DNA of 64,000 nt from an uncultured Gemmatimonadaceae bacterium (GCA_963716745.1 OY970320.1:1536001-1600000), one strand, 5' to 3'. Counted from the stretch's first letter, positions 1 to 58,098 are shown. Notes: generated by a model not told the origin, from the sequence alone. Numbers and translations: made by a program.

Positions 1-33
1 TAACGTCTAAGTCTAGAGTCCAAGTCTGTAGTT
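1..33. repeat. Partial short-period (6-7 nt, AGACT core) intergenic repeat at the window edge; on the minus strand it begins TAACTAC at the ppa stop codon
   Basis: Minus strand reads TAA CTAC AGACTTG GACTCT AGACTT AGACG. Same AACTAC head as other repeat elements in the window. Truncated by the window edge. Confidence 0.4.
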
Positions 34-598
34 ACGGCGTCGCCGTCATGAACTTCGCCGCGTACCGGTCGATGCCTTCGCGAATGACCGTCATCGCGAC
101 ATCGCTCTTCCCCCACCCCACGGTCTGCACCCGCTTCCCCTCGAGATCCTTGTAGATGTGGAAGAAGTGCTCGACCTCTTTCAGCACGTGCTGCGGGATG
201 TCCGCGATGTCGAAATACTCGCCGAAGAAGGGGTCGTTGATCGGCACCGCGAGGATCTTGTCGTCGGGCTCGCCGCGGTCGGTCATCTTCAGCACGCCAA
301 TGGGGCGCGCGTCGATCTGGCATCCCGGGAACGTCGGCTCGTTCACCATCACGAGGATGTCGCACGGATCGTGATCCTCCGCCAGCGTGCGCGGGATGAA
401 CCCGTAGTCGCCCGGATAGTGCACGGCCGAGTACAGCACGCGATCGAGACGCAGGAGCCCCGACTCCTTGTCGAGCTCGTACTTGTTGCGGCTCCCGGTG
501 GGGATCTCCACGAGCGCGGTCACCTCTTCCGGCGGGTGCCGCCCTGGGGGCAGGTGGTGCCACGGGTGGAGCAAGCGCGCCTCACGCGAAGTGTGCAC
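32..598 (-). CDS. ppa: Family I soluble inorganic pyrophosphatase
   Basis: Motifs EIPxGSRNKYELDK, LDRVL, YPGDYGFIPRTL, DxDPxD, D..DDKILAV, FF..YKDLE. True start may be the TTG about 9 codons downstream. Confidence 0.95.
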   Translation of the reverse strand: MHTSREARLLHPWHHLPPGRHPPEEVTALVEIPTGSRNKYELDKESGLLRLDRVLYSAVHYPGDYGFIPRTLAEDHDPCDILVMVNEPTFPGCQIDARPIGVLKMTDRGEPDDKILAVPINDPFFGEYFDIADIPQHVLKEVEHFFHIYKDLEGKRVQTVGWGKSDVAMTVIREGIDRYAAKFMTATP

Positions 599-648
599 CG
601 GAATTGTAGCGCGCCCGGCGCTCGACTGACAGCCGCGGCGGGCGTATC

Positions 649-1830
649 ATGTTCACGACCCCAACCGCCGGACTCTCGCTGACCCCTTCACGCTCGGCCG
701 CGCGCCCGCGCATCGTGCTCCTCGGCTGCTCTTTCGCCGGGCTCGAATTCCTGTTGCGGTACGCGCGGCGCACTCGTGCCTTCCGGCCGGGCGAAGTGAC
801 AGTGGTGGATCCGCGCACGAGTCATTCGTACGTTCCGCTCGCGCACGAGGTGGCGAGCGGCGCGCGCGAGGCCGCGGAGCTCGTCTTCGAGACGCCGGCG
901 TTCGTCACCGCGCTCGGCGCTGAGTGGGTGACGAGCGGCGCGCGCTCGGTGGATCCCGCGGCGAAGACCGTACTGCTCGAGAACGGCCGCGTCCTCGCCT
1001 ACGATCGCTGCATCGTGGCGGTGGGATCGGTGCCGGCGGTGCCGGCGGAACTCGACGGCAAGGCGGGCGTCATCGCCGCGAAGTGGATACCGGATGCCGC
1101 CGCGCTCAACGCGCGCCTGCACGTGCTGCGCGCGACGGGCGCGCGCATGATGCGCGTGGTGGTCGCCGGCGGCGGACTCACCGCCGTGGAGTGGAGCGCG
1201 GAGCTGGCGAGCGCGCGCGTGGAGGGCACGCGGATCGCGGTGACGCTCATCGGTTCGGAGCCCCGGCTGCTGCCGGCGTTCGCGCCGCATATCGCGCGCC
1301 GCGCGAGCCGCGCGCTGGAGTCGGTGGGCGTCGGAATGGTGTTCGGCCGCCGCGTGGCCGGCTTCGCGGGCGACCGCGCGCTGCTCGCGGACGGCGCGGC
1401 CTTCCCTGGCGACGTGCTGCTGTGGGCGGGCGGCGTACGCGCGAACCCGGTGCTCGCCGAGTTCGGCGCACCGCTCGGCGAGGACGGCCGCATCGTGGTG
1501 ACGCCGCGCCTCGAGGTGAACGGGTGCGACGGACTGCACGTGATCGGCGATGCCGCGCAGATCGTGGAGGACGGGAACCCGTGGCCCACGATGCGGCGCG
1601 CGATCGAGGCGATCTGGCAGGGCGCGCTGCTCGCGCGGCGGATCGCCGGACACTATGCCGTTGGCTCCGGACCATCGCACCGCCTGCGCACCGATTTCTG
1701 GTACGGCCTCTCGCTCGGCGCGAAGAAGAGCGCCATTGTGCGTGGCGGGCGACTGGATGAACGATCGGTGTATGTCGCGGCGCGCCGCGGGCTGCAATGG
1801 GCGTACTACCGCCGGTTCCCGGTTCGATAA
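649..1830 (+). CDS. NAD(P)/FAD-dependent oxidoreductase (NDH-2/pyridine nucleotide-disulfide family)
   Basis: Two Rossmann motifs (IVLLGCSFAG; VVVAGGGLTAVE), plus LWAGG and VIGDAA. Confidence 0.85.
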   Translation: MFTTPTAGLSLTPSRSAARPRIVLLGCSFAGLEFLLRYARRTRAFRPGEVTVVDPRTSHSYVPLAHEVASGAREAAELVFETPAFVTALGAEWVTSGARSVDPAAKTVLLENGRVLAYDRCIVAVGSVPAVPAELDGKAGVIAAKWIPDAAALNARLHVLRATGARMMRVVVAGGGLTAVEWSAELASARVEGTRIAVTLIGSEPRLLPAFAPHIARRASRALESVGVGMVFGRRVAGFAGDRALLADGAAFPGDVLLWAGGVRANPVLAEFGAPLGEDGRIVVTPRLEVNGCDGLHVIGDAAQIVEDGNPWPTMRRAIEAIWQGALLARRIAGHYAVGSGPSHRLRTDFWYGLSLGAKKSAIVRGGRLDERSVYVAARRGLQWAYYRRFPVR

Positions 1831-1831
1831 G

Positions 1832-1925
1832 AACTACTTTGACAGGATTAACATGATCGACATCATGATGGACAACGGGCGTCGTTCATCATGATGTCGA
1901 TCATGTTAATCCTGTCAAAGCAGTT
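1832..1925. repeat. Family A palindromic REP-like element, copy 1
   Basis: 39-nt arms (1832-1870 / 1887-1925) with 1 mismatch; core TTGACAGGATTAACATGAT. Confidence 0.95.
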
Positions 1926-1962
1926 GTCATGAATCTGGCGACGGCCCCGTCGCGCATCTAGA

Positions 1963-3935
1963 ATGTGTCCCATGTCTGACGATATCGACGTCCTCCTCCA
2001 CGAGCACCGGAAATTCCCGCCGCCCGCGAATTTCGCGAAAGGGGCGCACGTCAATTCCACCGCAATGCACGAGCGCGCCGCGAAGGACTACGAAGCGTTC
2101 TGGGCGGAGATGGCGCATGAGCTCGAGTGGTCGAAGCCCTGGAGCAGAGTGCTCGAGTGGGATCCGCCGTGGGCGAAGTGGTTCACCGGCGGCACGCTGA
2201 ACGCGAGCGTGAATTGTCTCGACCGCCATGTGCGCGGCGCGCGTCGCAACAAGGCGGCGCTCGTGTGGGAGGGCGAGCCGGGCGATACGCGGACGCTCAC
2301 ATACTGGGACCTGTACCGCGAGGTGAACAAGTTCGCGAACGTGCTCGACTCGCTGGGCGTGAAGCGCGGCGATCGCGTGGCGATCTACCTGCCGCTCATC
2401 CCCGAGGTCGTGATCGCGATGCTCGCGTGCGCGCGCATCGGCGCGCCGCACTCGGTGGTGTTCGGCGGCTTCTCGAGCGACAGTCTGCGCGACCGGATCA
2501 ACGATGCGCAGTGCAAAGTGCTCGTCACCGCCGACGGCGGCTACCGGCGCGGCACGATGCTGCCGCTCAAGCGCAACGCCGATAAGGCGCTCGAGGAGAC
2601 GCCGTCGATCAAGCACGTGGTAGTGGTGAAGCGCACCGGCGATGGCAGCGAGAGCCACGCCGAGATGACGGAGGGGCGCGACCACTGGTGGCACCGCCTC
2701 ATGAAGAACGCGGCGGCGTACCGCGAACCGGAGCAGATGGGCGCCGAAGATGTGCTCTACATCCTGTATACGAGCGGCACCACCGGGATCGCCCAAGGGC
2801 ATCGTGCACACCACCGGCGGCTACATGACCGTTGCGCACGCCACCACGAAACTGGTGTTCGACCTGAAGGAGGACGACGTCTACTGGTGCACCGCCGATG
2901 TCGGCTGGGTCACCGGACACACATATCTCGTGTACGGGCCGCTCTCCAACGGCGCGACGTGTGTGATGTACGAAGGCGCCCCCGACTGGCCCGAGAAGGA
3001 TCGCTTCTGGGAGATCTGCGAGAAGTTCGGCGTCACGATCTTCTACACCGCGCCCACCGCGATCCGCGCGTTCATGAAGTGGGGGAAGGAGCACGTGCTC
3101 AAGCACGATCTCTCCCGCCTCCGTCTGCTCGGCTCCGTGGGCGAGCCGATCAATCCGGAAGCGTGGATCTGGTACCACGAGAACGTCGGCAAGGAGCGCT
3201 GCCCCATCGTGGACACGTGGTGGCAGACGGAGACCGGCAGCATCCTGATATCGCCGCTCCCGGGCGTGACGCAGGACCAAACCCGGCAGCGCGACCATGC
3301 CGTTCCCGGGGATCTTCGCCGATCTGCTCGACGCGAACGCGAGACCCATCGCGGTGGGCGGCGGCTTGCTCGCGATCACCAAGCCGTGGCCTTCGATGCT
3401 TCGCACGATCTGGGGCGACCCCGACCGCTACGTGCAGACGTACTTCTCGAAGTGGAAGGACCGCCCCGATCTGTACTTCCCTGGCGACGGCGCGAAGCGC
3501 GACGACGAGGGCTATTTCTGGATCCTGGGCCGCGTGGATGATGTGCTCAACGTCGCAGGCCATCGCATCGGCACCATGGAGGTGGAGAGCGCGCTCGTCT
3601 CGCATCCCGCGGTGGCCGAGGCGGCGGTGGTGGGCAAAGCGCATGAGCTGAAGGGACAGGCGATCGCGGCGTTCGTGACGCTGCGCGAAGGGCAGAGAGC
3701 CTCGCCCGCCCTGCGCGACGACCTGCGCGAGCACGTCGCGCAGAAGATCGGCGCGCTCGCCCGCCCCGACGACATCCTCTTCTCGGCCGACCTGCCGAAG
3801 ACGCGCTCCGGAAAGATCATGCGCCGGCTGCTGCGCGACATCGCCGAAGGACGCGCGCTGGGCGACGTGACGACCCTCGCCGATCCCGCGGTCGTCGCGA
3901 AGCTGAAGGATCAGTACGAGGCGACGGAGTCCTGA
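1963..3935 (+). CDS. acs: Acetate--CoA ligase (AMP-forming); two frameshifts at ~2788 and ~3274, probably sequencing indels
   Basis: Three consecutive frames give [51 protein letters not shown] and [12 protein letters not shown]. Confidence 0.95.
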
Positions 3936-4028
3936 ACGAACTGCTTGACAGGATTAACAAGATGGACAGGATGAACAACAAGCGTTGTTCATCCTGTCCA
4001 TCTTGTTAATCCTGTCAAGCAGTTCGTT
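3935..4028. repeat. Family A palindromic element, copy 2 (between convergent acs and VKOR genes)
   Basis: Perfect 45-bp inverted repeat (3935-3979 / 3984-4028) with loop AAGC. Internal 9-nt units ACAGGATTA/ACAAGATGG/ACAGGATGA. Confidence 0.95.
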
Positions 4029-5467: not shown

Positions 5468-5573
5468 TCGAGGAAAGCTAGGGCCTGCGACAGACCCCGG
5501 CAATTCGCCGGACGCACTACACCGGGAGGCGATCTTCGATTAGATTCATGGGTCCTCATACCGTGCAGGGAGA

Positions 5574-5855: not shown

Positions 5856-5896
5856 ACAGCAACGGCGTGTGTGGCGTCTGGCGTATGGTACGACTG

Positions 5897-6806: not shown

Positions 6807-6819
6807 TGGGCCTCTGCCA

Positions 6820-8917: not shown

Positions 8918-9388
8918 ATGGATATGTCCGCCACCATCGAGATCCTCAAGACGATCAACATCTTCAAGGACCTCACGCCCGAGGAACTCGGCCGCGTCTC
9001 GGAACTCTGCGAGGAGCGGAAATACGAGTCGGGGGTGTACGTGTTCCATGAAGGCGAGCCGGGCAACCGGCTGTTCATCATCGTCGAGGGCGCGGTGCGG
9101 ATCTCGCGCCAGATCCCGGGCGCCGGTGAAGAGGCGCTCGCCGTGCTCAAGAAGGGCGCGCTCTTCGGAGAGATGGCGGTATTCGACAAGAGCGAGCGCT
9201 CCACCGACGCGATCGCCGACGGCGGTGTGACCGTGCTCACGATCTCGCGCCCCGAATTCGAGATGCTCCTCGAATTCAACAAGGAGCTGGGCACGAAGAT
9301 GCTCTGGGCCGTGATCCGGATGCTCTCCATGCGACTCCGCAGCACGAACGACTCGCTCAAATCGTTCCTGGCGATGAGTATGTTCTAA
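8918..9388 (+). CDS. Stand-alone cyclic nucleotide-binding domain protein
   Basis: IF..L, VFHEGEPG, FGEMAVFD..RSTDAIA; no HTH domain. Confidence 0.9.
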   Translation: MDMSATIEILKTINIFKDLTPEELGRVSELCEERKYESGVYVFHEGEPGNRLFIIVEGAVRISRQIPGAGEEALAVLKKGALFGEMAVFDKSERSTDAIADGGVTVLTISRPEFEMLLEFNKELGTKMLWAVIRMLSMRLRSTNDSLKSFLAMSMF

Positions 9389-9439
9389 CTGCGGACGACG
9401 GGCTGTTACGCTTCTACCGCTCCAGGCATCTAGTACTAA

Positions 9440-9805
9440 ATGCCCGCGACCATCCCGCCTCCCGCCTTGTCCGCGTTCACGCACGTCGCCGCCGATCTCA
9501 TCGGGGTGACGGGCGACGCGCTGCGCGATGTCTCGGCGCTCGGCGGGCTGCTTATCGCGGCGGCGGGCGCGGCGGGCTACGGCACGATCGGGGCGCCGGT
9601 GGTGAAGCAGTTGCCGGGCGGCGACGTCGCCGGGGTGCTGCTGCTCGACGGCTGCCACATCGCGCTGCATTCGTTCCCCGAGCGCGAATTGCTCCTCCTC
9701 GACATCCTCGCCCCCGCCTCGCGCGACGCGCGGAAGGCGCTGGACGTATTCGCGAAGCGTCTGGTTCCGCGGCAGATCAGGAGCGAGGCCCGGCCGAGGG
9801 GTTAG
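9440..9805 (+). CDS. S-adenosylmethionine decarboxylase (SpeD)-like protein with degenerate active site
   Basis: GVLLLDGCHIALHSFPE...LDIL aligns by eye with SpeD G...LAESHxSxHTWPE...DxFTC. Confidence 0.75.
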   Translation: MPATIPPPALSAFTHVAADLIGVTGDALRDVSALGGLLIAAAGAAGYGTIGAPVVKQLPGGDVAGVLLLDGCHIALHSFPERELLLLDILAPASRDARKALDVFAKRLVPRQIRSEARPRG

Positions 9806-12442
9806 TCGCTCCCTTGGCGTTCCCTCGCACGACGGCCTGTACGAGTCGCGATTCGTCGAAGTACTTCCTCGCGAGTTCTCGCATTGCGCCCGCCGTCACC
9901 GCCGCGCACGCGCGCATCGTGCTCGTCGAGCTCGCGAGTCCGCGTCCCATCATCCATGCGTCGACGATCTCCCCGAGCACGCTGCCGCCGCTCTGCTGGC
10001 GGATCGCGTGCGTGCCGATCGCGTATTCCTGCGCCAGCTCCAGTTCGCGCGCGGTGACCTCGCCCTCGCGCAGCCGCGCGAACTCGCGCAGGAGTCCGCG
10101 GCGCGCCGTCTCCTCCTGCGCTGGCGACGTCGCGATGTAACTCACGAACATGCCCGCGCGACGGCGCTCGCTCGAGTGCGCGTGCACGGTGTAGGCGAGC
10201 GACTTCTTGTCGCGCAGCTCCTCGAAGAACCGGCCGCCGAGTCCGCTCGCGACACCGGCGATCATCTCGGCCGCCCAGCGATCGTCGTCCCACCGGTCGG
10301 GCGCGGGGAACGCGAGCGCGAGTGCCGTCTGCGCCTTGTCGCGGTCCTCGCTCACCGACACCGGCCGCGCGCCGGCCACGCCGGTGCGTCCAACGCACCC
10401 GGCCGGCCCGCGCCGAGGCCTGCGAAGAGCACCGCGGCGCGCGCGGCCGCGTCGTCGGCGTCCACGTCGCCCACGATCGCGATCGCCGTCGCACCGCTGA
10501 TCACGCGCACGCGGTGCCAGGCACGCAGCCGCCCTGCATCCAGCGCGGCGAGTGTGTGCTCATAGCCGCTCGAAGGAATGCCGTATGGGTGCCCCGCGAA
10601 CGCCGCCGAGACGAGCAGGCGCATCGGCCAGCGGTACATGTCATCGCGCATCAGCGCGAGGTCGGCGATCGCCACGGCGCGCTCGGTCTCCAGCGCGCCC
10701 GCCGGGAAATTCGCGTTCAGCACGACATCGGCGAGCAGCGCCATCGCCGCCGCGCCATGCTGCGATGGCACGGAGATCGACCAGCCCAGTTGCTCGGCGC
10801 CGGCATGCGCGCTCACGCTCCCGCCGAGCGATTCCGCCTCTTCCGCGATCTGCTCGGCGCGGCGCTTGGCCGTGCCCTTCACCGCCGTGCGCGTCATGAG
10901 CGACGTGAGCCCCGCGCTCTCTTCGTTCTCATCGCTGGCGCCGCCCGCCGCGAATACGCCCACGTGCATGAGCGGCGATCCCGCGCGCCGCTTCACGAGC
11001 ACTGGCACGCCCGCCGCCGTGCGATAGATGCGCACACCCGCCTCCTCGCGGTCGAGCGCGACCGGCGAGAGCACGAGCGCGGGCGACTCCGGCGCCGGCG
11101 ACGGCGCGACGAAGGGCTGGGCGCGCCCTCCTTCCAGGATCGCGCGCAGCGCACCGGTGTCCGCGGCGACGGGCGGCGAATTCCGCGGCCGGTAGAACAG
11201 CACGCCCGCGCGCTCCGCCGTGAGGTGCCGGCGCATCGCCGCGGTCACTTGCTCGCCGTCGGCGCCAAGCAGTCCCGCGAGGTATGCACCGCCAAGCGTC
11301 CAGGCGCCGAGCGCTTCCCACCCGGCGAGATAGGTCGCCTGGCCCTCCATGGTCTCCAGCCGGCGCAGCCACTGCGATTCGATCACGCGGCGCGCGCGCT
11401 CAAGCTCGGCCGGGTGCACGCCCACATCGCGCATTGCCGCGAGCTGCGCCCACGCTTCGGCGGTCGCATCCGCGGCCGATGAGGGTGGCCCCTCCGCGTG
11501 GATGGTGAACACGCCGAGCTGGGTCGGCGTGTAGTTCGACGCTCCGATGGAGGCGACGAGCCGGCGCTCGCGCACCGCGCGATAGAGTCGCGACGCGCGG
11601 CCCGCGCCGAGCATCGTCGCGGCGAGATCGAGCAGCACCGTGTCGGCGTCGAGCGTGCCCGGCGTTCGCCAGCCGATCGCGATCTGCGTCTGCGCGATGT
11701 CGCCTGCCAGTTCGTGGAAACGGAGTCCGTCGTGCTCCGGCTCCGCCGGTCCGGCCGCATGCTCCACCGGAGCATCTTTGAGCGTGCCGTACAGGCGCTC
11801 CACTTCGCGCACCGCGATCTTCAGGTCAATGTCGCCCACGATCGAAAGGATCGTATTGCCGGGGCGGTAGTGATTGCGGTAGAAGCGCGTGACATCCGCG
11901 CGCGTGAACCGCCGCAGCATGTCCTCGCGGCCGATGCGCCAGCGTCGCATCCGATGCCGGTCGTGCAGCAACGCGTACAGCGACTCGACCGCCACGGCGG
12001 AGGGATTGTCCTCCTTCCGTTTGGCTTCCTGGATGATGACCGCGAGCTCGCGCGCGAGCTCATCCGCATCGATGAGCGAATTCGCGAACGCATCGAATTG
12101 GATCTCGAGTCCGCGCACGAACGCCGCGGACGGGAGTACGGTGTAATAGCTGGTCTGGTCGTAGATCGTGCCGGCGTTCAGGTAGCCGCCGGCGGCCTTC
12201 GTCGCACGCGGGATCTCGCCCACGCCGCGCGTGGGCGTCCCCTTGAAGTACATGTGCTCGAGCACGTGGGAGATGCCCTGCACGTCGTCCGTCTCATCGA
12301 AGTAGCCGGCTCTCACGTGCGTGACGATCGCGACGACCGGCGCACTGGCGTCGCGGCGGAGGAGAACGGTGAGCCCGTTCTCCAACCGCACGCGCCTGAC
12401 GGAATCGACTGGAAGGAGCGGCGAAGCGCCGCCGCCGCTCAC
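9777..12442 (-). CDS. M16 family zinc peptidase (pitrilysin/PqqL-like); frameshift at ~10370 and probably further indels near 9905-9935
   Basis: LENGL, inverted zincin motif HVLEHMYFKGT, NAGT, two M16 halves; GTG start overlaps the upstream TGA. Confidence 0.9.
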
Positions 12443-14572: not shown

Positions 14573-16228
14573 TCATTTCTTCGGACCGCCGGTGGAATCG
14601 CGCATCGCCTTGAACTCCGCGCCCGCGCTCCATTCCGGCACCACGGGCGAGTTCCCGAGCGCGCGGCCGAATATGAGCACGATGTCGGCGAGCTGCGTCG
14701 CGCCGGAAAGATCGAAGTCCGGCCGATACTCATCGGATGGCTGGTGATAGCGGTGCGCCGTATAGTCCGCCTGCTGCGCTTCGCCCCAACCCTTCGGCCG
14801 TCCGACGTACGTGAGTCCCGCGCCGATCGAGATCGCGGGGACGCCCGCCTTGGCGAACGAGAAGTGGTCGCTGCGATAGAAGTGACCCGCCTCCGGATGC
14901 GGGTCGGGCACGAGCGACATCCCCTTGGTCTGCAGGAGATGCGCGAACATCGTGCCGAGCGAGCTCTTGTTGGAGCCGATCACCACGTAGTCCTTCATCT
15001 TCCCGTCGAGCGGCACGACGTCGAGGTTCAGATCGGCGACGATCTGGTTCACAGGCACGGTGGGGTGCGTCGCGAACCAGGCGGAGCCGAGGAGTCCCGA
15101 TTCTTCCGCCGTGACGAACACGAACAGCTGCGTGCGCCGCGTGGGCGCGAGCTTCGCGGCCGCGCGCGCGATGCCGAGCACCGCCGCGGTGCCCGACGCG
15201 TTGTCGGCCGCGCCGTTGTAGATGGAGTCGCCGTTCACCGCGGGGCCGATGCCGAGATGGTCCCAGTGCGCGCTGTACACGACGTACTGCTCCTTGTAGC
15301 CGGCCGCGTTGCCGTTCACGACGCCCACCACGTTCTCGCTCTCCATGTGCGACATGTGGTTCTTCATCGTCATGTCCATCATGATGCCGGTGTGCACCGG
15401 CTTGAACGCGCGCGTTGCCGCCTGCGCGCGCAGGTCGCCCATGTTAAGTCCAGCCTGCGCGAGCAGCGCGCTCGCCGCGCTGTCGGTGATCCATCCGTTC
15501 ACGCCGTTGGGCGACGGGCCGTTGGGATCGCGCGGCAGCATGCGGATCTCCTTCGCCCACGATCCCACCACCGTGTGCCACGGATAGCTCGCCGCCTCGG
15601 TGGTGTGCACGATGAGCACGCCCGCGGCGCCGAGGCGTTCGCCTTCCTCGTACTTGTAGGTCCAGCGGCCGTAGTAGGTCATCGCTTTGCCGCCGAAGAA
15701 TCCCGGCTCGCTCGCCGTGGCCGGCGGATCGTTCACGAGCACCAAGAGGATCTTCCCCTTCATGCTCTCGCCCTTGAAGTCGTCCCACTTGTACTCGGGC
15801 GCCTGCGCGCCGTAGCCGACGAACACGAGCTCGCCGCGCGCGACGCTCGAGTCCGTCGCGCTGCCCGGCGCGACCACGACATCGTTCGGGTAGTTGAGCG
15901 TCGCCTTCGCCTTGCCGCTCGCCGTGACGCGGATGGTGGACGCGATGGCGCCCACGACGTCGATCGGCACCTTCTGGAAGTACGATCCCTTCACGCCCGG
16001 CAGCACTCCCGCGATCTGCAGCTGCGACGCGATGTACGCCGCCGTGAGCTGCCCGCCGCGCGTCGCCGGCGCGCGTCCCTCGAGCAGGTCGCTCGAGAGG
16101 AACTTGAGGTCGGCGTCATACGCCGACGCCGTGATCTTCGCCGCGCAGGAACATGGCGTGGCGCTCTGAGCGTTGATCGACGCCGGCGCGGCCACGGCAA
16201 GAGACAGGATGACAAGAGTTCGCTTCAT
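14573..16228 (-). CDS. Secreted M28 family metallopeptidase with PA domain
   Basis: Signal peptide; SAHWDHLG, NGAADNASG, TAEESGLLGS, RSDHFSF, YHQPSD. Confidence 0.92.
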   Translation of the reverse strand: MKRTLVILSLAVAAPASINAQSATPCSCAAKITASAYDADLKFLSSDLLEGRAPATRGGQLTAAYIASQLQIAGVLPGVKGSYFQKVPIDVVGAIASTIRVTASGKAKATLNYPNDVVVAPGSATDSSVARGELVFVGYGAQAPEYKWDDFKGESMKGKILLVLVNDPPATASEPGFFGGKAMTYYGRWTYKYEEGERLGAAGVLIVHTTEAASYPWHTVVGSWAKEIRMLPRDPNGPSPNGVNGWITDSAASALLAQAGLNMGDLRAQAATRAFKPVHTGIMMDMTMKNHMSHMESENVVGVVNGNAAGYKEQYVVYSAHWDHLGIGPAVNGDSIYNGAADNASGTAAVLGIARAAAKLAPTRRTQLFVFVTAEESGLLGSAWFATHPTVPVNQIVADLNLDVVPLDGKMKDYVVIGSNKSSLGTMFAHLLQTKGMSLVPDPHPEAGHFYRSDHFSFAKAGVPAISIGAGLTYVGRPKGWGEAQQADYTAHRYHQPSDEYRPDFDLSGATQLADIVLIFGRALGNSPVVPEWSAGAEFKAMRDSTGGPKK

Positions 16229-16261
16229 CAGATTGACTTGAGAAAAGTGAGAGGTGGTGTT

Positions 16262-16354
16262 GCAGTTCAAAGCATGTGAATCATGTTAATCCTGTCCAAT
16301 GCTCTTCCTAGAATCCGCGATAACTGCTTTGACAGGATTAACATGATTTACATG
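16262..16354. repeat. Family A element, copy 3 (arms in outward orientation)
   Basis: CATGTGAATCATGTTAATCCTGTC (16273-16296) / GACAGGATTAACATGATTTACATG (16331-16354), 1 mismatch; GCAGTT at 16262 and AACTGC at 16322. Confidence 0.9.
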
Positions 16355-16383
16355 ATTGGGCACGGAACGCTAAGTTTGCAGTC

Positions 16384-16545
16384 ATGACCGACACGCCCGC
16401 ACCGGAAACGCCCGCCGCCGAGAATCCCGTCGTCGATACGTCGCCCGCCGCGCCCGAGCGCACCGCCGTCACCTACGGGATCCTGTTCATGGTGCTCGCC
16501 GCGCTCGTCGTGTACTTCGTGCTGCACGCGGTGCGCCGCCACTAG
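16384..16545 (+). CDS. Small 53-aa single-TM membrane protein (below the ORF-track cutoff)
   Basis: MTDTPAPETPAAENPVVDTSPAAPERTAVTYGILFMVLAALVVYFVLHAVRRH*; GC3-rich codons; fills the intergenic gap. Confidence 0.7.
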   Translation: MTDTPAPETPAAENPVVDTSPAAPERTAVTYGILFMVLAALVVYFVLHAVRRH

Positions 16546-17474
16546 TCCTGTTCGACGGCCGCCTTCGGTGGCACGCCGACGGCTCGCGCGATCTCGGCGC
16601 CCATGCGGCCCATCAATCGCTCCGGCTCATTGTCGATGATCCAGCGCTGGTCCACGTTCGCGCGCGTGAGCACGCACACCACCACTCGCGTCCGCAGATA
16701 GTACAGCCCGCATTCGGTGCGGATGTCGTCATCCTTGCCGGACTTGTGCGCCGCCCGCACGCCCACGAGCATGCGCGTGAGCAACTCCGTCTCGTCGTTG
16801 GTCTCGAGCATCGCGAGCATCGCGGAGTCGGCCTTGGCACCCACGGCCTTCCCCTGCGCCAGCAATACGAAGAGCTGCGCCATCTCGTTGGGCGTGGTCT
16901 TCCCGAGGCCGTACTTCTCGGAACTGTCCCGCGCGATGGTCGTGATCGCGCGCTGCATCACGAGATGGTGCACGCGCGTGTTCGCGAGATGCAGCGAGTC
17001 GAGCCGCGCGTTGACGCGCGCGAGCGTGATCTTCTGCAGCAGCAGGTTGGTCGCGGTGTTGTCGCTGGTCTCGATCATCAGCTGCGCCGCGTCGCGAACG
17101 GTGATCGTGAGTCCGGAGTGCAGGTACTGTAGCACGCCGCTGCCGCCCGCCTTGTCCAGCTCGAGCAGCACCAGCGGATCGTTCAGGGAGATCTGCCCGT
17201 GCTCAACGAGGTCGTAGAGCGTCACCAGCACGCCAACCTTGATCAGGCTCGCGGTGGGGAAGGTCGAATCGCCGCGCAGCGAGAGACGCCATCCCGCATC
17301 CACGTCGCGCACCGCGTAGCCGACCACCCCATGATGCGCCGCCGCGAGCGAATCGAGCGTGCGGTGCAGCTTGGCGGTGTCGACTCTCTGAGCTGCGGCG
17401 ACACCGGCCGCCGCCGCGAGGATCGCTCCCGCGATGCCGAGCGCCGAGAGCCGAGCGCCGAGGCCTGCCGTCAC
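16542..17474 (-). CDS. Class A beta-lactamase-like serine hydrolase
   Basis: Signal peptide; SxxK (ASLIK), SDN, KSG; TTPNEM. Confidence 0.88.
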   Translation of the reverse strand: MTAGLGARLSALGIAGAILAAAAGVAAAQRVDTAKLHRTLDSLAAAHHGVVGYAVRDVDAGWRLSLRGDSTFPTASLIKVGVLVTLYDLVEHGQISLNDPLVLLELDKAGGSGVLQYLHSGLTITVRDAAQLMIETSDNTATNLLLQKITLARVNARLDSLHLANTRVHHLVMQRAITTIARDSSEKYGLGKTTPNEMAQLFVLLAQGKAVGAKADSAMLAMLETNDETELLTRMLVGVRAAHKSGKDDDIRTECGLYYLRTRVVVCVLTRANVDQRWIIDNEPERLMGRMGAEIARAVGVPPKAAVEQD

Positions 17475-17478
17475 GTTG

Positions 17479-17706
17479 CTACGCGTCCGTGAACGTCCCC
17501 GCGTTCCGCGTCTCGACGAGCTCGCGCTCCTTGGACGTCGGATCGTACATCGCCAGCACCTTCACGTGCTCGCCCGAGTAGCAGTCGAACACCTTGCCCT
17601 GCCCCTTCCTGATCTCGATCTCGTGGCCGTCCTCGAACCGGAGCACGACGGCCGGATACTTGGTGTTCTCGTATTTCTTGCGGAGCTTTTTCGGAGGAGT
17701 CGGCAT
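17479..17706 (-). CDS. Hypothetical protein (75 aa)
   Basis: Natural composition; co-oriented between kynureninase and the serine hydrolase. Confidence 0.7.
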   Translation of the reverse strand: MPTPPKKLRKKYENTKYPAVVLRFEDGHEIEIRKGQGKVFDCYSGEHVKVLAMYDPTSKERELVETRNAGTFTDA

Positions 17707-17764
17707 AGCCCTGGGGATGAGAGTCTCCCGAACTTACGGCGCGCGCACGGGGGCTACAAGGCGC

Positions 17765-20283: not shown

Positions 20284-20311
20284 TCCATTTACCCCGCAGG
20301 CCGCCGCTCCG

Positions 20312-22063
<1,752 letters not shown>

Positions 22064-22190
22064 TCCGAAGGAGGACAGGTGGGGGTCCGCGGCCGCAACG
22101 AAGCGCGCGCGCCGCTCGCATCGGCGGGCGCGGCGCATAAGTTAACCGCGGTGGCATTCGGGCCACGCGCAAGTTACCCAATCCGTGATC

Positions 22191-23306: not shown

Positions 23307-23436
23307 AACTGCGCGTTGGAACCGCTGACGGCGGGACTGGTACCGCTAGGGGCGGGATTGGCGTTGGATGAAGCCGTTGTGGTATCCAACGCCAATCCCG
23401 CCGTCAGCGGTGCCAGTTCCGCCGTCAGCGGTTCCA
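23307..23436. repeat. Family B long hairpin element, copy 1 (21-nt internal unit)
   Basis: 53-nt arms (23317-23369 / 23384-23436), about 5 mismatches; unit TGGNACCGCTGACGGCGGGAY; AACTGC immediately after the TAG. Confidence 0.9.
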
Positions 23437-23475
23437 GTCCCTAATTAGCTTTCAGTCATACCCACCGGACATGAC

Positions 23476-26145
<2,670 letters not shown>

Positions 26146-26151
26146 AGTCTT

Positions 26152-26267
26152 AACTGCAAGCCGGGAACCGATTGCCGGGAACCGATGAGGAACAAAAAAT
26201 GATTCCCTTACGACAGGGAATAGGTGGTCATGCCTCACCGGTTCCCGGCAACCGGTTCCCGGTAGTT
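26152..26267. repeat. Family C hairpin element, copy 1 (14-nt unit CCGGGAACCGRTTR)
   Basis: 30-nt arms (26161-26190 / 26233-26262), 2 mismatches; bounded by AACTGC and GTAGTT; lies between convergent genes. Confidence 0.9.
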
Positions 26268-28856: not shown

Positions 28857-28884
28857 GCCGCAGTGAATAATTGGAGGTCACATC

Positions 28885-32964: not shown

Positions 32965-32967
32965 TTC

Positions 32968-33060
32968 GCAGTTCCATCATGTGAATCATGTTAATCCTGT
33001 CAACGTAGTTTTTGAAAACTACTTTGACAGGATTAACATGATTCGCATGATTGGGACTGC
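32968..33060. repeat. Family A element, copy 4 (outward orientation)
   Basis: About 45-nt arms (32968-33012 / 33015-33060) containing ATCCTGTCAA and AACTACTTTGACAGGATTAACATGAT. Confidence 0.92.
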
Positions 33061-33118
33061 CCCGTTCCGCTCTGGAGTGCCGAGACCTACATTCAACTCG
33101 TTCCCCATCGGAGGCTCC

Positions 33119-33665: not shown

Positions 33666-33667
33666 TT

Positions 33668-33775
33668 CATCGTGCATCGCGCATCGTGCCTCGTGCATCG
33701 GCCATCGTGACCGCTTCGAGCGGTCGCGATGCCCGAATCCCCCGCCGAGGCACGATGCACGAGGCACGATGCGCG
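33668..33775. repeat. Family D heptamer (CATCGTG) hairpin element
   Basis: Tandem CATCGTG/CATCGCG/CCTCGTG units; perfect 23-bp arms (33678-33700 / 33753-33775); nested inner hairpin 33703-33731. Confidence 0.85.
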
Positions 33776-33838
33776 CCCTTTCCGCCGTGAGATATTTTTT
33801 CTCTCGCGAATCTCGAGTGGACGCGTAAGTTTCCGTTC

Positions 33839-36248: not shown

Positions 36249-37289
36249 AGCCGTCGAGCGTTCGCTGGCCCGCGGAGTGGGAGCCGCACACGGCGACGTG
36301 GTTGAGCTGGCCGCACAACAAAGAGGATTGGCCCGGAAAGTTCGCGCCGATCCCGTGGGTGTACGTCGAGATCGTGCGCGCGCTGCACACGCACGAGCGG
36401 GTGGAGATCCTGTGTCACAGCGCCGCGGTGAAGCGCAGCGCCGAGTCGGCGCTCAAGGCGCACGGTGTGGATCTCGCGCGGGTGGGCCGGCACATCGTGC
36501 CGAGCGACCGCGTGTGGACGCGCGACTCCGGCCCGACCGGAGTGCTCGACAGCGGCGGCGCGCTGCAGTGGGCCGGCTGGCGGTTCAACGGCTGGGCGAA
36601 GTACAAGAACTTCAAGGAGGATGTGAAAGTCGGCGCCGCGATCGCGAAGCTGAGCGGCGCGCCGCTCACCGCCGCCGTGCGCGATGACACGGGCAAGCCG
36701 CTCGTGCTCGAGGGCGGCGGCATCGAGACCGATGGTGCGGGCACGATGCTCGTCACCGAGGAGTGGCTGCTGTCCAAGGTGCAGGTGCGGAATCCCGGCA
36801 TGGACCGCGCAGGCGTACGAGCGCGCGTTCGCGCAGTGGCTGGGCATCAAGCGCACGGTCTGGCTGGGTGAAGGCTGCGTCGGCGACGACACGCACGGGC
36901 ATGTGGACGACATCGCGCGGTTCGCGGACGCGCACACCGTTGCGCTCGCGTACGAGCCCGACCCGCGCGACGAGAATCATGCGCGGAGCAAGGACAACGC
37001 ACGGAGGCTCGAACTCGCGGGGGGACTGCGCGTCGTGAAGCTGCCGTACCCGCGCGCGGTGGTCATGGATGGCCAGCGGCTGCCGGCGAGCTACGCGAAC
37101 TTCTACATCGCGAACGGAGTGGTGCTGGTGCCCACGTTCAACGATCCCAACGACCGCGCCGCGCTGAATATTCTCGCGCAACTATTCCCGGGGCGAGAGG
37201 TAGTCGGGATCCACGCGGGGGATTTAGTGTGGGGACTGGGGACGATCCACTGCCTGACCCAGCAGCAGCCGGCGGCTAAGCGCCGCTAA
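36245..37289 (+). CDS. aguA: Agmatine deiminase; frameshift at ~36810
   Basis: PAEWEPH, WTRDSGP, LEGGGIE.DG, DDTHGHVDD, ASYANFY, GTIHCLTQQQP. Confidence 0.92.
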
Positions 37290-37291
37290 CG

Positions 37292-37432
37292 GCGTGAGTC
37301 GCACCGCAACGGGCGGGACTGGTACCGCTTGGTGCGGGATTAGCGTTGGGGATTGGATAGTGCGGGTCTCCATTCCAACGCCAATCCCGCCGCTCGCGGT
37401 ACCAGTCCCGCCGTCAGCGGTGCCAATCACGC
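37292..37432. repeat. Family B long hairpin element, copy 2 (between convergent aguA and SPFH genes)
   Basis: Arms 37301-37349 / 37375-37423 share GGCGGGACTGGTACCGCT and CCAACGCCAATCCCGCCG with copy 1. Confidence 0.88.
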
Positions 37433-45931: not shown

Positions 45932-46107
45932 ATGACCTCCGGAACGCGACGCAACGCTCGAGCGGCATGTGCCACCCGCACCTTGTACTTATGCGACTTG
46001 CATGCCGTCCGTCAAGTTACTTCCGGGCAAGGACTTGGCTTTTCTGCTGCCACAGAAAGTGTCCATAAAACGGACGGTGGGTGAGATACGATTGGACACC
46101 GGTGAAG

Positions 46108-46222
46108 TACGCGGGAAGCGGGAAGCGGGAATCGCCGCGGGAAGCGAGAACGGCGCGATGGGCACCATCGCGCAGTTCTCGCGTCACCGCGGCGAGTCCC
46201 GCGTCCCGCTTCCCGCGTAGTT
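46108..46222. repeat. Family E heptamer (GCGGGAA) hairpin element
   Basis: About 54-nt imperfect arms (46108-46161 / 46165-46219); tandem GCGGGAA; minus strand starts TAA-CTAC at the DUF62 stop. Confidence 0.85.
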
Positions 46223-50977: not shown

Positions 50978-53320
<2,343 letters not shown>

Positions 53321-53384
53321 CGCGGAGTCCTCGGTAGAGCAGTGTCCAGCGTGAAGATAGAGGCGGCATGCCCACCCTGAAAGG

Positions 53385-53555
53385 CGCGTGTGGGCCTTGG
53401 TACCGCTGAAGGGGCGCGTTTGGCAACGGAGCGTATGGTACCACAGGGCGTCCGTAGCCACGACGCACTGTTCTCGTCGTGCCAATTCACGCCGGGTGGT
53501 ACCATACGCTCCGTTGCCAGACGCGCCGTTTCAGCGCTACTAAGGCCTACACGCG
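53385..53555. repeat. Long inverted repeat (family F), MITE-like or structured RNA, in a divergent intergenic region
   Basis: 60-nt arms (53385-53444 / 53496-53555), 6 mismatches, inner 24 bp perfect. Confidence 0.88.
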
Positions 53556-53625
53556 TTCGTAGGATGCTTCCCGTGGAGAAGTCGCCGCTGCATAATTGCC
53601 TTCCATCTCCAATCCGGATCTCCCA

Positions 53626-54411: not shown

Positions 54412-54419
54412 GCGCCGCG

Positions 54420-56107: not shown

Positions 56108-56739
56108 GCCGCATCTCGCGCCGCACGATGGTGAAATGGCTCGCGGCCGCGCCGGCGATCGGCGCGATCGAATGGAGCTCGGCGCAAACGGCGCGCGCCG
56201 CGGAGCATCTCAGAGCGCTCGAGGAGCCGGGTGCGGCGCCGTACTCGCCGAGATTCTTCTCGCGCAACGAGTGGGCGACAGTGGTGGTACTCGTGGACTA
56301 TGTGATCCCGCGCGACGAGCGTTCGGGCAGCGCCACCGATGCGAAAGTCCCTGAGTTCATGGATTGGATCCTGGCGGATTCGAACACCAAGGATGAGACA
56401 CGCACCGCAATGCGCGGCGGACTCGCCTGGCTCGATCTCGCGTGCGAGGACCGCTTCGGGAAGACGTTCACCGCGTGCAGCGACGCGCAGCGGCGCCAGC
56501 TGCTCGACGACATCGCGTGGCCCAAGAAGGCGAAGCCCGAGTACCGCCAGGGCGCCGCATTCTTCTCGCGCTTCCGTGACATGACCGCGAGCGGATTCTT
56601 CTCCACCGAGATGGGTTGGAAAGACGTGCAGTACCTCGGCAACGTTGCCGTCGCTCAATGGAACGGATGCCCGCCCGCCGCGCTCGAGAAGCTCGGAGTG
56701 AACGACGCGATGATGGACGCGAGGCCTACGCGCAAATGA
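56104..56739 (+). CDS. Gluconate 2-dehydrogenase subunit 3 family protein (Tat signal)
   Basis: SRR twin-arginine leader; IP.D..SGSA.DA.V, GFF...G..D..Y.GN. Confidence 0.85.
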   Translation: MSRISRRTMVKWLAAAPAIGAIEWSSAQTARAAEHLRALEEPGAAPYSPRFFSRNEWATVVVLVDYVIPRDERSGSATDAKVPEFMDWILADSNTKDETRTAMRGGLAWLDLACEDRFGKTFTACSDAQRRQLLDDIAWPKKAKPEYRQGAAFFSRFRDMTASGFFSTEMGWKDVQYLGNVAVAQWNGCPPAALEKLGVNDAMMDARPTRK

Positions 56740-57972
56740 AGCGGCTTGGCGTTGGATTCATCGGGAGCGGATTCAATGCGCGCTTCCACATGCTGGGATG
56801 GCGCGGCGTGCGCGAGGGCGATGTGCGCGGCGTGTGGAGTCCCAACGCGAAGAACGCGGAATCGGCGGCCGCATACGCGCGCGAGTTGGATGTGGGCGAT
56901 GCGAAGGCGTTCCAATCGATCGCCGCGATGGTGGCCGATCCCTCGATCGACGCGATCTGGATCACCGGTCCGAACCAGGCGCGCATCGAGAACGTGGAGG
57001 AGATCGTGGACGCGCTCGCGCGAGGGCGCGGAGAGCTGAAGGGCATCGCCTGCGAGAAGCCGCTCGCCCGCAACGTGAAGGAAGCGCAGCGCGTGCGCGA
57101 TCTCGCAGCGAAGGCGGGACTCGCCACCGGCTACCTCGAGAACCAGGTCTTCGCGCCGCAGGTGGAGACGGGCCACGCACTGCTGTGGAAACGCGGCGCC
57201 GCGACGACGGGCCGTCCGTATCTCGCGCGCGCCGCCGAGGAGCACAGCGGGCCGCACATGCCGTGGTTCTGGCGCGGCGAACTGCAGGGCGGCGGCGTGC
57301 TCAACGACATGATGTGCCACTCGGCGCTCATGGTGCGGCACTTGCTCACCGCGCCGGGCGCGCCGCTCTCGAGCGTCAAGCCGGCGAGGATCACCGCGCA
57401 CATCGCGAGCCTCAAGTGGACGCGGCCGGAATATGCGAAGCGGCTGCGCGCGGCGATGGGCAAGGACGTGGACTACACGAAGACGCCGGCCGAGGATTTC
57501 GCGAGCATGATGATCGAGTTCGAGACGGCCGATGGTCACACCGTGATCGGCGAGGCGACGACGTCATGGAGCTTCGTGGGCCCGGGGCTGCGGTTGTCGG
57601 CGGAGCTGCTCGGCCCCGAATACTCCATGAACTGGAATTCGCTCGACAGCGGACTGAAGCTCTTCTTCAGCCGCGAGGTGCGCGGGAAGAGTGGCGAGGA
57701 TCTTGTGGAGAAGCAGAACGCCGAGATCGGACTCATGCCCGTCGTGGCGAACGAGGCGGTGGCGTACGGCTACGAGGCGGAGGACCGGCACTTCGTTCGC
57801 GCGTTCCTCGGAAAGGAGGCGCCGCGACTCACGTTCGACGATGGACTGGATGTGGTGCGCATGCTCATGGCGGGGTACATGAGCGCGGAGACAGGGGAAG
57901 ACCGTGAGCTTTCCGCCGAAGGGACTGGAAGCGTTCGTGCCGGCGGTTGCGCGAGGAACGTGGAAGCCCTGA
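56736..57972 (+). CDS. Gfo/Idh/MocA family oxidoreductase; probable indel near 57897
   Basis: GFIGSG, CEKPLA, GGGVLNDMMCH; alternative-frame C-terminus KTVSFPP...GTWKP* ends right at the repeat. Confidence 0.88.
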
Positions 57973-58098
57973 ACTGCGAACTACCGGGAACCGATTACCG
58001 GGAACCGGTATGGCATGACAACGCATCGTGAACCAGCCGAGCGACGCCGTATACCATGTGTTGTCATGCTTCACCGGTTCCCGGTAACCGGTTCCCGG
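57972..58098. repeat. Family C hairpin element, copy 2
   Basis: 43-nt arms (57984-58026 / 58056-58098); 36-nt block 34/36 identical to copy 1; headed by AACTGCGAACTAC. Confidence 0.9.

Follow-up and report, generated by a model that had tools for sequence, protein, structure and literature searches.

AACTRC as an outer end shared by unrelated families of intergenic hairpins in an uncultured Gemmatimonadaceae bacterium

Several hairpins lie between the genes of a 64,000-nucleotide stretch from an uncultured soil bacterium of the Gemmatimonadaceae (genome positions 1536001-1600000; hereafter the window, with positions counted from its first letter). Their arms are built of different units, and many of them begin at or close to a stop codon with the same six-letter word, AACTRC or its complement GYAGTT, which we call the head. 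Is a single system at work behind these hairpins, and if so, of which kind? The initial annotation read them as one REP-like system. We analysed the whole genome, a single 3.29-Mb contig of 89.8% marker completeness that may hold frameshift errors, together with five sister genomes (63-89% complete), which makes a genus sample of six; the gene calls (3015 genes) were crude and made for this analysis. In this bacterium, many different and unrelated intergenic hairpin families have AACTRC in common as their outer end, and the hairpin repeats are gene-less copies of small cassettes that carry one of two cargo genes.

Hairpin elements of the window

AACTRC has 57 matches in the window versus 21.3 ± 4.6 in shuffled sequences (largest shuffle, 31). 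It is present at every coordinate initially listed, including the arm-bounding sites at 1920, 4019, 16262, 16322, 33005 and 33017. The proposed location at or near a stop codon stands for the heads at 28-33, 1832, 3939, 23307, 26152, 26262, 32968 and 46217, but not for that at 57972.

Family A, with 9-nt units, is represented by a hairpin at 1832..1925 that runs from AACTAC to GCAGTT and starts 1 nt past the TAA of an oxidoreductase gene. Its RNA minimum free energy is -67.0, versus -18.6 for shuffles, and it aligns to the arms of a GxxExxY cassette at genome positions 1094715-1095191; the site is occupied in sisters G002, G004 and G005, with the inner part rewritten. Another A hairpin, at 3939..4024 (AACTGC to GCAGTT), lies 3 nt past the TGA of acs. 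This site is filled in G002 and empty in G004, where no head is found either, and G005 has an A-type element approximately 35 nt farther from the stop. Two A arms are arranged in inside-out order at 16262..16360 (heads GCAGTT at 16262 and AACTGC at 16322). An inside-out A pair is also found at 32968..33060, with GCAGTT 3 nt past the TGA of the MDR gene and with GTAGTT at 33005 and AACTAC at 33017 facing each other. At the MDR end, G005 has an A hairpin in normal order and G003 has no element, and in G002 the gene end and the element are tandemly duplicated.

The other families have units of different lengths. An arm of family P (6/7-nt units) is clipped by the window edge at 1..36; GTAGTT at 28-33 serves as its head and overlaps the TAA of ppa, a minus-strand gene, and the arm aligns to that of a PF05635-carrying P cassette of G004 (locus L144; 83% over 36 nt). 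The family B hairpin at 23307..23450 (21-nt units) has its AACTGC immediately past the TAG of the patatin gene and aligns to the arms that flank a broken PF05635 gene at genome position 2641426; sister genomes show other versions of the unit, with AACGAC, AACGGC or GACGGC at the same place. We identified a second B hairpin, beyond the initial list, at 37283..37432 (AACGGC at 37288-37293), where G002 and G004 have arrays of a different, longer unit.

The hairpin of family C (7/14-nt units) at 26152..26267 fills the space that separates acnA from the convergent CDP-alcohol transferase gene. Its left head starts 6 nt past a TAG, its right head (26262-26267) shares one base with a minus-strand TGA, and it is 97.6% identical to the gene-carrying C copy over 42 nt; the same gene end harbours a GGGAAAA-unit hairpin in G002, an ACGGGAA-unit hairpin in G005 and a diverged C element in G004. 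The C hairpin at 57972..58100 has two successive heads (AACTGC at 57972 and AACTAC at 57979). The only long ORF there, 56736-58031, reads into the element, and the TGA at 57970 is out of frame, a relation that is the same in three sister genomes; the site is occupied by a different family in G002 and G004 and by family A in G005. In the family E hairpin at 46103..46222 (GCGGGAA units), the right head, GTAGTT at 46217-46222, overlaps the TAA of the minus-strand DUF62 gene, the left head is degenerate (AAGTAC), and the identity to the gene-carrying E copy (genome positions 568266-568580) is 92.7% over 55 nt. A family W hairpin, also beyond the initial list, at 53383..53566 has headless outer ends and a GCCGTT inside its right arm. 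Finally, a solo head, TAACTGC, on the plus strand (9386..9402) forms the stop codon of the gene ending at 9388, the hairpin behind it being deleted. Sisters have hairpins there, of GGCTGTC units in G002 and G004 and of GACTGAC units in G005; the sequence corresponds to that of G002 minus the stretch between two GCTGT copies, i.e. a deletion at 9392 between short direct repeats.

All window elements align to arms of gene-carrying copies, hereafter called masters. As initially stated, no candidate enzyme gene was found in the window: the PF05635 and PF13366 matches all lie outside genome positions 1536001-1600000. Since for each hairpin family of the window there is a gene-carrying master with matching arms, the reading as one system is largely supported.

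The head and its placement at stop codons

Genome-wide, AACTRC is only 1.7 to 2.2 times denser between genes than within them; its signal is positional. We collected long hairpins without using the motif, 352 of 418 being mostly intergenic. The fuller consensus of the head is the degenerate AAC-K-R-C, with a loose position 4, a purine at position 5 and nearly fixed positions 2, 3 and 6. In the intergenic set, 150 of 352 hairpins have AACKRC no more than 10 nt from a stem end, 58 of them at both ends; the rate per hairpin end is 29.5%, versus 2.5% in random intergenic windows. Heads are thus enriched at hairpin ends, as the initial annotation supposed.

The head precedes the arm core at a fixed offset in 45/95 arms of family A, 36/89 of P, 37/82 of C, 23/96 of E and 21/76 of G, i.e. 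24-47% of arms, compared with 1.5% of random intergenic 34-nt windows. It is not universal. Heads are sparse in families S (7/32 arms) and B (4/35), and missing on all arms of families H (0/37) and R (0/17). Even in A, P, C, E and G, the families where heads are most frequent, 53-76% of arms have none, which counts against the explanation that we favour below.

In 62 complete elements, the 124 heads are AACGGC (47), AACTGC (34), AACTAC (27) and AACGAC (16). The two variable positions match between the arms of one element in 49 and 51 of the 62 cases, less often than the neighbouring arm bases (93%), which again counts against that explanation. Distances between heads in direct orientation show two maxima, one at 6-7 nt (41 cases) and one at 36-41 nt (44 cases versus 13-23 in adjacent bins). 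Additional heads are found at loop-side arm ends, between concatenated modules and in tandem. On either strand, GYMGTT follows the hairpin on its 3' side.

In 126 of 3015 genes, AACTRC begins between +1 and +10 of the stop codon, versus 13.3 ± 3.3 (largest value, 22) in 200 shuffles, and in 60 of these 126 genes an inverted repeat of 15 or more pairs comes behind it, versus 15 of 300 control genes. It most often starts at +1 (58 genes) or +2 (30 genes), and GYAGTT starts at -1 in 21 genes. A trivial reading is that TAA or TGA followed by C-rich sequence yields AACTRC by chance near hairpins, as the 88 stop-adjacent cases that share bases with TAA or TGA might lead one to think. Yet TAA is followed by CTRC at 58 of 388 TAA stops, versus 3.7 expected, and TGA by ACTRC at 28 of 1809 TGA stops, versus 2.8 expected, and heads also occur at loop-side ends and far from stops. 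These counts contradict the stop-context reading and leave it a vanishingly small probability.

Because 136 of the 246 arms with a head are more than 60 nt from any called stop and the empty acs site of G004 is headless, the head is a property of the element rather than of the stop-codon context. How often the head overlaps the stop differs by hairpin family. Counting only arms that have a gene stop no more than 60 nt away, the overlap is seen in 19/20 cases for E, 12/19 for P, 10/28 for C, 5/17 for G and 0/18 for A. The arm units of E and G contain no stop codons, and those of A contain several.

A head without any reader would be another way to account for these joints. It could be a relic of an ancestral cassette or result from repeated microhomology between an AA end and TAA or TGA, and the stop overlap indeed uses exactly the head's A or AA, a deletion between short direct repeats occurred at 9392, and the head is degenerate and frequently missing. 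However, the 6-mer has survived with both types of cargo and in genera other than this one, despite unrelated arms and proteins that are often less than 40% identical; the purine-only position 5 and the near-fixed positions 2, 3 and 6 have the pattern of a constraint; and stop microhomology cannot account for heads away from stops. We consider this alternative distinctly unlikely.

Gene-carrying masters and gene-less copies

Seven PF05635 matches were found in the genome, one per hairpin family (C, E, G, S, V, W and B) and always in the loop, the gene of the B master being broken. PF05635 is the four-helix-bundle family of 23S-rRNA intervening-sequence (S23p) and Avd-like proteins; six of the seven proteins pass TIGR02436, and the closest solved structure is 2GSC (E = 7.8e-22). 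Family P encloses a PF05635 gene in sister genomes. The sole intact PF13366 gene (GxxExxY, PD-(D/E)XK nuclease fold; 130 bits) is framed by family A arms. Both types of small genes suggested beforehand, four-helix-bundle and GxxExxY, are therefore inside master copies. We know of no catalytic activity of PF05635 proteins, and the accessible part of PMC3424549 lists PF13366 with function unknown. We found no paper tying PF05635 or PF13366 genes to dispersed hairpins.

In the seven PF05635 masters, two terminal blocks of approximately 40-90 nt recur 25-87 times in the genome, and the interior recurs 0-2 times. The outer block edge coincides with the head in masters C, G and V, and masters E and S have no head at the block edge. 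Arms of different families have no sequence in common, and cargo proteins are less than 40% identical in 270 of 528 pairs. Co-variation of arms with proteins is confined to protein identities of 80% and higher, where shared descent alone would produce it. What is new here is one head common to several families and to both cargo types.

This architecture extends to related genomes. Unit-built inverted arms were found at 24 of the 28 PF05635 loci examined in the five sisters, with the head exactly at the arm edge in several of them (L144, L145, L146 and L143). A arms flank three of the ten PF13366 loci of the sisters; AACTGC stands on both sides of two of these and on one side only of the third. 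Outside the genus, elsewhere in the phylum, 17 of 28 PF05635 loci have unit-built arms, six of these 17 with a head beside the arms; the six all belong to the order's two nearest families.

Orthologous stop-abutting gene ends hold different families, or nothing, in genomes that are 84-95% identical. The elements are thus not fixed at orthologous sites: the comparison of empty and filled sites proposed at the outset revealed clear presence or absence as well as family replacement between sisters. Clean sister-genome insertions without a head also occur, such as a 146-nt insert at genome position 1730467. In these comparisons, no excision or insertion junction could be placed at a head with base precision, and no target-site duplication was found among 67 elements, whose flank matches were of 2 nt in 12 cases, of 3 nt in none and of 4 nt in one.

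On balance, we think it probable that these hairpins belong to a lineage-wide superfamily of palindromic cassettes resembling intervening sequences, with AAC-K-R-C as outer end-word and the window hairpins as gene-less derivatives. AAC-K-R-C, mostly as AACTGC or AACTAC, would be the conserved outer end of cassettes whose construction resembles that of 23S rRNA intervening sequences. A complete cassette of approximately 0.5-0.7 kb comprises a head, an arm, a small cargo gene, the inverted arm and an inverted head, with family-specific arm units of short period (6-10 nt, or 21-37 nt) and a cargo of the PF05635/TIGR02436 four-helix-bundle type or, for family A, of the PF13366 GxxExxY type. The window hairpins have kept arms and head and lost the interior, as MITEs do relative to an autonomous element. 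The families would differ because each cargo lineage brings its own arm units, the head being the common part. A single mechanism probably handles all hairpin families, because they share the end-word and include gene-less copies of cassettes with two cargo types.

The results above show the cassette architecture, the relation of masters to gene-less copies, the head as part of the element, its accumulation at stop codons, and gains, losses and family replacements between sister species. From these we infer that the head would be retained because a factor common to all families reads it, either in DNA, where elements would be copied or rewritten, or in RNA, where the long stem would be processed. 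Candidate readers are a host protein, a conserved face of the cargo proteins or a nuclease-fold protein acting in trans; the single nuclease initially proposed to act on the head stays a hypothesis. The TAA-C and TGA-AC overlaps may stem from settling or compaction at gene ends, with selection keeping the stop, and this overlap would be strongest in families with stop-free arms.

Alternatively, the hairpins might be useful to the host as 3'-end signals, namely terminators or stems that stabilise or process mRNA, evolving in place under host selection, with AACKRC/GYMGTT as a putative RNase or termination-factor site at the stem base and the cargo genes as passengers. They lie at gene 3' ends and often occupy the whole gap between convergent genes; the stems are very stable (-39 to -114 kcal/mol versus -15 to -55 for shuffles), and sites remain occupied across species despite the change of family. 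The accessible part of PMC4990558 also describes an RNase III cut at the start of the first heptamer repeat of the Coxiella 23S intervening sequence. However, a U-tract-like run (5 or more T among the 8 nt that start with the head's TT) is present at only 20 of 124 element ends and the stems are far longer than usual, so that intrinsic terminators were rejected. Moreover, some sites are plainly empty in sister genomes, the recurrence of arm blocks shared with masters is a signature of copying rather than of local evolution, and heads occur on the loop side, in tandem and, for the majority of headed arms, away from any called stop. We consider a host signal unlikely.

A bolder version of the cassette reading, which we advance only tentatively, is that AAC-K-R-C may be the recognition or cleavage word of a so far undescribed mobile or self-rewriting system with two cargo classes. 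One activity, possibly a nuclease-fold protein in trans, would copy, swap and erase modules between heads, and the unit arrays would be sites bound by the cognate multimeric cargo protein. If true, such a system would explain the family replacement at the same stop-abutting sites, and a function would be found for two protein families and for bacterial heptamer repeats, to which none has been assigned for decades.

Comparison with known systems

In REP systems, a conserved GTAG lies at the 5' side of each hairpin, and the RAYT gene is typically framed by its own REPs. The elements described here resemble REP, BIME and REPIN sequences in being dispersed, extragenic imperfect palindromes near gene ends, with a short terminal motif and mosaics, and in forming several families per genome, each linked to a gene framed by its own repeats. 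It was this superficial likeness, together with the GTAG contained in GTAGTT, that made a RAYT (Y1 HUH) transposase reading the head conceivable. However, a profile search for PF01797 gave no match in any of the six genomes of the genus (none in the genome studied and 0/5 in the sisters), while in a control search PF01797 was recovered from 6 of 14 reference genomes. GTAG is present in the AACTAC variant only, one of four (27 of 124 heads of complete elements), the others containing GCAG, GCCG or GTCG, the head is on the 3' side, and the framed genes are those of PF05635 and PF13366. The cargo folds are different, and the long stems (60-130 nt) of tandem units further distinguish these elements. 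Membership in a classical REP/REPIN-RAYT system is contradicted and, in our view, highly improbable; of the initial proposal, the families sharing one kind of system stands.

In integron attC sites, which have the form RYYYAAC ... GTTRRRY, the AAC and GTT are turned towards the body. In the present elements these triplets are outermost and the flanks have no RYYY or RRRY pattern, and we rejected this candidate. The relation between MITEs and autonomous elements is closer, in that gene-less copies keep both termini of a longer gene-carrying element and far outnumber it. Unlike insertion sequences, these elements have no recognised transposase or target-site duplication, and the whole element is one long tandem-unit palindrome; the cargo genes are not of transposase families, and no RVT_1 was found either.

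Intergenic heptamer repeats have been described as GGGAATC inverted pairs in Xanthomonas and GGGGA(C/T)T in Nostoc (PMC4692102) and as TAACTGA in Beggiatoaceae and cyanobacteria (PMC4679880). As far as the accessible parts of both papers go, these also consist of short-period units, often in convergent stem-loop pairs, and prefer the first 50 bp past the stop or overlap it. TAACTGA, which gives stops in all frames (PMC4679880), shares AACTG with the head. Differences are that these parts present one unit type per genome and no common end-word across unit types, and report no link to mobile elements or cargo genes, explicitly so in PMC4692102.

The 23S rRNA intervening sequences of Coxiella burnetii and Leptospira (S23p), as described in the accessible part of PMC4990558, have a PF05635-family ORF in the loop of an inverted-repeat stem and tandem heptamers beside the ORF whose number varies between strains; they are called selfish, of unknown mobility, and are processed by RNase III. 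That text does not mention a common end-word such as AAC-K-R-C. Those sequences are located in helix 25 or 45 of 23S rRNA, whereas the cassettes described here are placed between protein genes or at their ends; this genome's only 23S gene has 2959 nt for a model of 2925 positions and therefore contains no large insert. Many families per genome, tens of gene-less copies of each and a second cargo class, PF13366, also set the present cassettes apart. What they have in common with the intervening sequences is the PF05635 ORF enclosed by long-stem inverted repeats, an arrangement seen for all seven PF05635 matches of the genome.

A common end-word on unlike hairpins and its position at stop codons

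The genome under study (hereafter called G000) is a single 3.29-Mb contig with a G+C content of 66.9%, of which the window covers positions 1536001-1600000, and the best relatives of its aconitase (~70% identity) are found in Gemmatimonadota MAGs. Genome-wide counts were based on a crude codon-usage gene caller (3015 genes, 84% of the sequence), which gives exact stop positions for the chosen frames and misses some genes.

AACTRC or its complement GYAGTT was found at all the sites at which the initial annotation had reported it, and the window harbours 57 copies of AACTRC, versus 21.3 ± 4.6 in shuffles. A listing of 642 non-coding sites showed that this word, called the head, caps at least six different bodies of intergenic hairpins, the families of which (denoted by letters) have their own short-period arm units. 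Counted per arm, the head is present at a fixed offset in families A (45/95), P (36/89), C (37/82), E (23/96) and G (21/76), against a background of 1.5%; frequencies are lower in S (7/32) and B (4/35), and none of the 37 H and 17 R arms has it. Position weights describe a degenerate AAC-K-R-C hexamer, with positions 2, 3 and 6 almost fixed and a purine at position 5. Among 352 intergenic hairpins collected by a motif-free search, AACKRC is present at 29.5% of stem ends, versus 2.5% of random windows, and strict AACTRC at 16.5% versus 1.0%. The palindrome stops at the head in 35 of 67 complete elements, indicating that the head is their outermost paired part.

The listing of non-coding sites also places the head on the loop side, where it closes arms in direct orientation, between concatenated modules of different families, and in tandem; direct head-to-head spacing peaks at 6-7 nt and 36-41 nt. 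Of 62 elements, 42 have two identical heads (17.5 expected under independence), and at the two variable head positions the agreement between arms is lower than for the adjoining arm bases.

Two further sequence features were noted. In family A arms, a perfect TTGACA hexamer directly follows the head (window 1838-1843, 3945-3950, 16329-16334 and 33024-33029); a promoter role is conceivable in inside-out family A pairs, where it points at the downstream gene. A three-fold run of the family G unit, CGACAGC, lies within the acnA coding sequence (window 24703-24729) and probably represents chance or a coding repeat.

Genome-wide, the density of AACTRC between genes is only 1.7-2.2 times that within genes; its position is sharply non-random. 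In agreement with the placement at stop codons proposed in the initial annotation, the word starts at +1 to +10 of the stop in 126 of 3015 genes (13.3 ± 3.3 in 200 shuffles), and an inverted repeat of at least 15 pairs starts at the word in 60 of these 126 genes, versus 15 of 300 control genes. Of the start positions, +1 accounts for 58 genes (TAA-CTRC) and +2 for 30; in 21 genes, the complement GYAGTT has its start at -1. CTRC directly follows TAA in 58/388 cases (3.7 expected) and ACTRC directly follows TGA in 28/1809 cases (2.8 expected). The stop codon initially assigned to the site at window position 57972 had to be discarded, because the only long ORF there is in a different frame from the TGA at 57970. 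A whole-genome comparison of TAACTRC with the reversed pattern was dropped as a control because coding bias dominates it.

Overlap between head and stop depends on the family. Where a gene stop lies no more than 60 nt from an arm, head and stop have bases in common in 19/20 cases for E, 12/19 for P, 10/28 for C, 5/17 for G and 0/18 for A; the arm units of E and G have no stop codon in any frame, and those of A have several. This dependence would be compatible with selection that favours a stop codon at the edge of the element, or with compaction through small deletions that exploit the A or AA common to stop and head; it would agree less well with an enzyme targeting stop codons.

Cassette copies and their cargo genes

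Seven PF05635 (four-helix-bundle/S23p/Avd-like) matches were found in G000. Each occupies a hairpin loop, and the seven hairpins represent as many families (C, E, G, S, V, W and B); the B-family gene is broken. Six of the proteins pass the TIGR02436 "four helix bundle protein" model, and three of these six (E, G and C) also show weak similarity to the DGR Avd model. Against the Xanthomonas structure 2GSC, the C-family protein reached E = 7.8e-22, and the second PF05635 subtype only E = 0.0021. Each of these cassette copies, or masters, has two terminal blocks of 40-90 nt with 25-87 recurrences in the genome, and an ORF-bearing interior with 0-2. The head itself bounds the repeated block on its outer side in the C, G and V masters. 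In E, S, W and B it is missing from this edge; in W, an AACTGC lies 4 nt beyond the left block.

No PF05635 master was found for family A in G000; its arms enclose the sole intact PF13366 (PDDEXK_3, GxxExxY) gene of this genome (genome positions 1094715-1095191). All window hairpins align to the arms of some master, the window-edge P arm aligning to a PF05635 cassette of the sister genome G004, and the window was confirmed to lack a candidate enzyme, as no cargo gene is present there. The convergent A-arm pairs around one lipocalin-like and one cyclase-like gene were rejected as cassettes: each is a normal gene that happens to be flanked by two independent hairpins. At genome positions 2952555-2953217, a hairpin of 206 nt, which has AACTGC heads and GCGGA-type units, adjoins a PF13366 gene broken into two frames.

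Unit-built inverted arms are present at 24 of the 28 PF05635 loci examined in five sister genomes of the same genus (G001-G005), several with the head exactly at the arm edge. Family A arms flank 3 of 10 sister PF13366 loci, with AACTGC on both sides in two of them and on one side in the third. The head followed by the family A core was counted 33 times in G000, 29 in G002, 13 in G004 and 54 in G005; it was not found in G001 or G003, and just once among 35 searched genomes of other genera. PF05635 is present in 44 of 61 sampled Gemmatimonadota genomes, a tally that includes G000 and an unpublished genome, G086. Outside the genus, 17 of 28 loci have unit-built arms, with AACKRC beside the arms in 6 of the 17, all in the two nearest families. 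Cassette pairs have arm 7-mers in common in 9/13 cases at protein identities of at least 80%, in 2/91 at 60-80% and in 0/424 at lower identities. Such co-variation of arms and proteins fits co-inheritance and is no proof of specific recognition.

Element turnover among sister genomes

Synteny across the window is unbroken with G002 (94%), G004 (93%) and G005 (84-87%), and the comparison of empty and filled sites suggested in the initial annotation revealed gain, loss and family swapping. On the 3' side of acnA, family C is present in G000 and G004, a GGGAAAA-unit hairpin in G002 and an ACGGGAA-unit hairpin in G005, where the palindrome takes in both stop codons. Three different families occupy the 3' side of the Gfo-like gene across four genomes. 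In G000 its ORF (window 56736-58031) extends ~20 codons into the family C hairpin, and the orthologues in G002, G004 and G005 end inside whatever element is there; the elements therefore rewrite the C-terminus.

The acs site is empty in G004. The acs gene itself (window 1963-3935) consists of two overlapping frames (1963-3651 and 3297-3935), probably owing to an assembly frameshift. At window position 9392, a deletion between short direct repeats has left G000 with the head alone. The MDR gene has no element in G003, and its end was duplicated together with the element in G002. Between window positions 39277 and 39349, G002 (L092 region) harbours a 562-nt insert in which inverted GCCATCG heptamer arrays flank a PF05635-type ORF; the corresponding stretch of G000 measures just 71 nt, with convergent genes 1 nt apart, and G005 has a family A hairpin there. 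The family B hairpin of G000 at 37305-37427 corresponds in G004 to five or more tandem copies of a ~50-nt unit; long-period family units start with AACGGC. At 9777-9823, convergent genes overlap in G000 and are separated by a 100-160-nt hairpin in G002, G004 and G005, which points to element loss with fusion or extension of gene ends.

The same turnover pattern extends over a further 400 kb, including a conserved protein end with the head in place at genome position 1778366, where the body is of family E in G000 and of family C in G004. A 399-nt stretch of G000 without counterpart in G002 and G004 (genome positions 1969531-1969930) is apparently located inside coding sequence and is unrelated to hairpins. 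No target-site duplications were found at the elements. Insertion junctions, and with them the limits of the mobile unit, were not resolved to the base, as most empty/filled pairs across 460 kb of three-way synteny are replacements or have diverged flanks. For positions 16000-34000, Logan contigs from four soil/rhizosphere DNA runs yielded short low-depth pieces with no usable joints at elements, and a look-up of RNA runs for window positions 22000-30000 gave none.

Function and relation to known systems

The initial annotation's observation of a common head was confirmed and sharpened. Its REP-like reading was abandoned, as no RAYT was found in G000 or in any of the five sister genomes; as far as architecture and cargo are concerned, its proposal of one system with one common rule is supported. 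Rfam gave no match on the window at the gathering threshold, and a likeness to integron attC sites was ruled out by inspection of flanks. No reverse transcriptase (RVT_1) was found in G000, leaving no obvious retro-route with an Avd-like partner.

The hairpin stems are extremely stable. As a U-tract-like run is present at only 20 of 124 element ends, they are not classical intrinsic terminators. RNA-level processing of the stem base is plausible by analogy with the Coxiella intervening sequence, in which, according to PMC4990558, RNase III cleaves where the first heptamer begins, ahead of the S23p ORF. G000 has one 23S rRNA gene (231259-234217), which lacks an intervening sequence; a GGCTGTC-unit hairpin is located just downstream of it (234505-234581).

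In practical terms, the elements remodel the 3' ends of genes: they provide stop codons and lengthen or shorten C-termini. They also make Gemmatimonadota genomes more difficult to assemble and annotate. The 6-nt head marks the families and can be mutated or serve as a probe.

Intervening sequences, S23p with its heptamers and the Xanthomonas pentamer structure are treated in PMC4990558; PMC4692102, on GGGAATC inverted pairs near stops, states outright that its authors saw no association with mobile elements; TAACTGA repeats are treated in PMC4679880, and PF13366 is listed with unknown function in an entry of PMC3424549. In a full-text literature search, with subscription journals outside its coverage, PF05635 or PF13366 genes were nowhere tied to dispersed hairpin families, and no common end-word was named. 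One explanation could join three old loose ends, namely abundant short-period (heptamer-type) intergenic repeats, S23p/intervening-sequence proteins and GxxExxY nuclease-fold proteins. G000 makes it testable: its hairpin families number at least nine, and every one is linked to a copy with a cargo gene.
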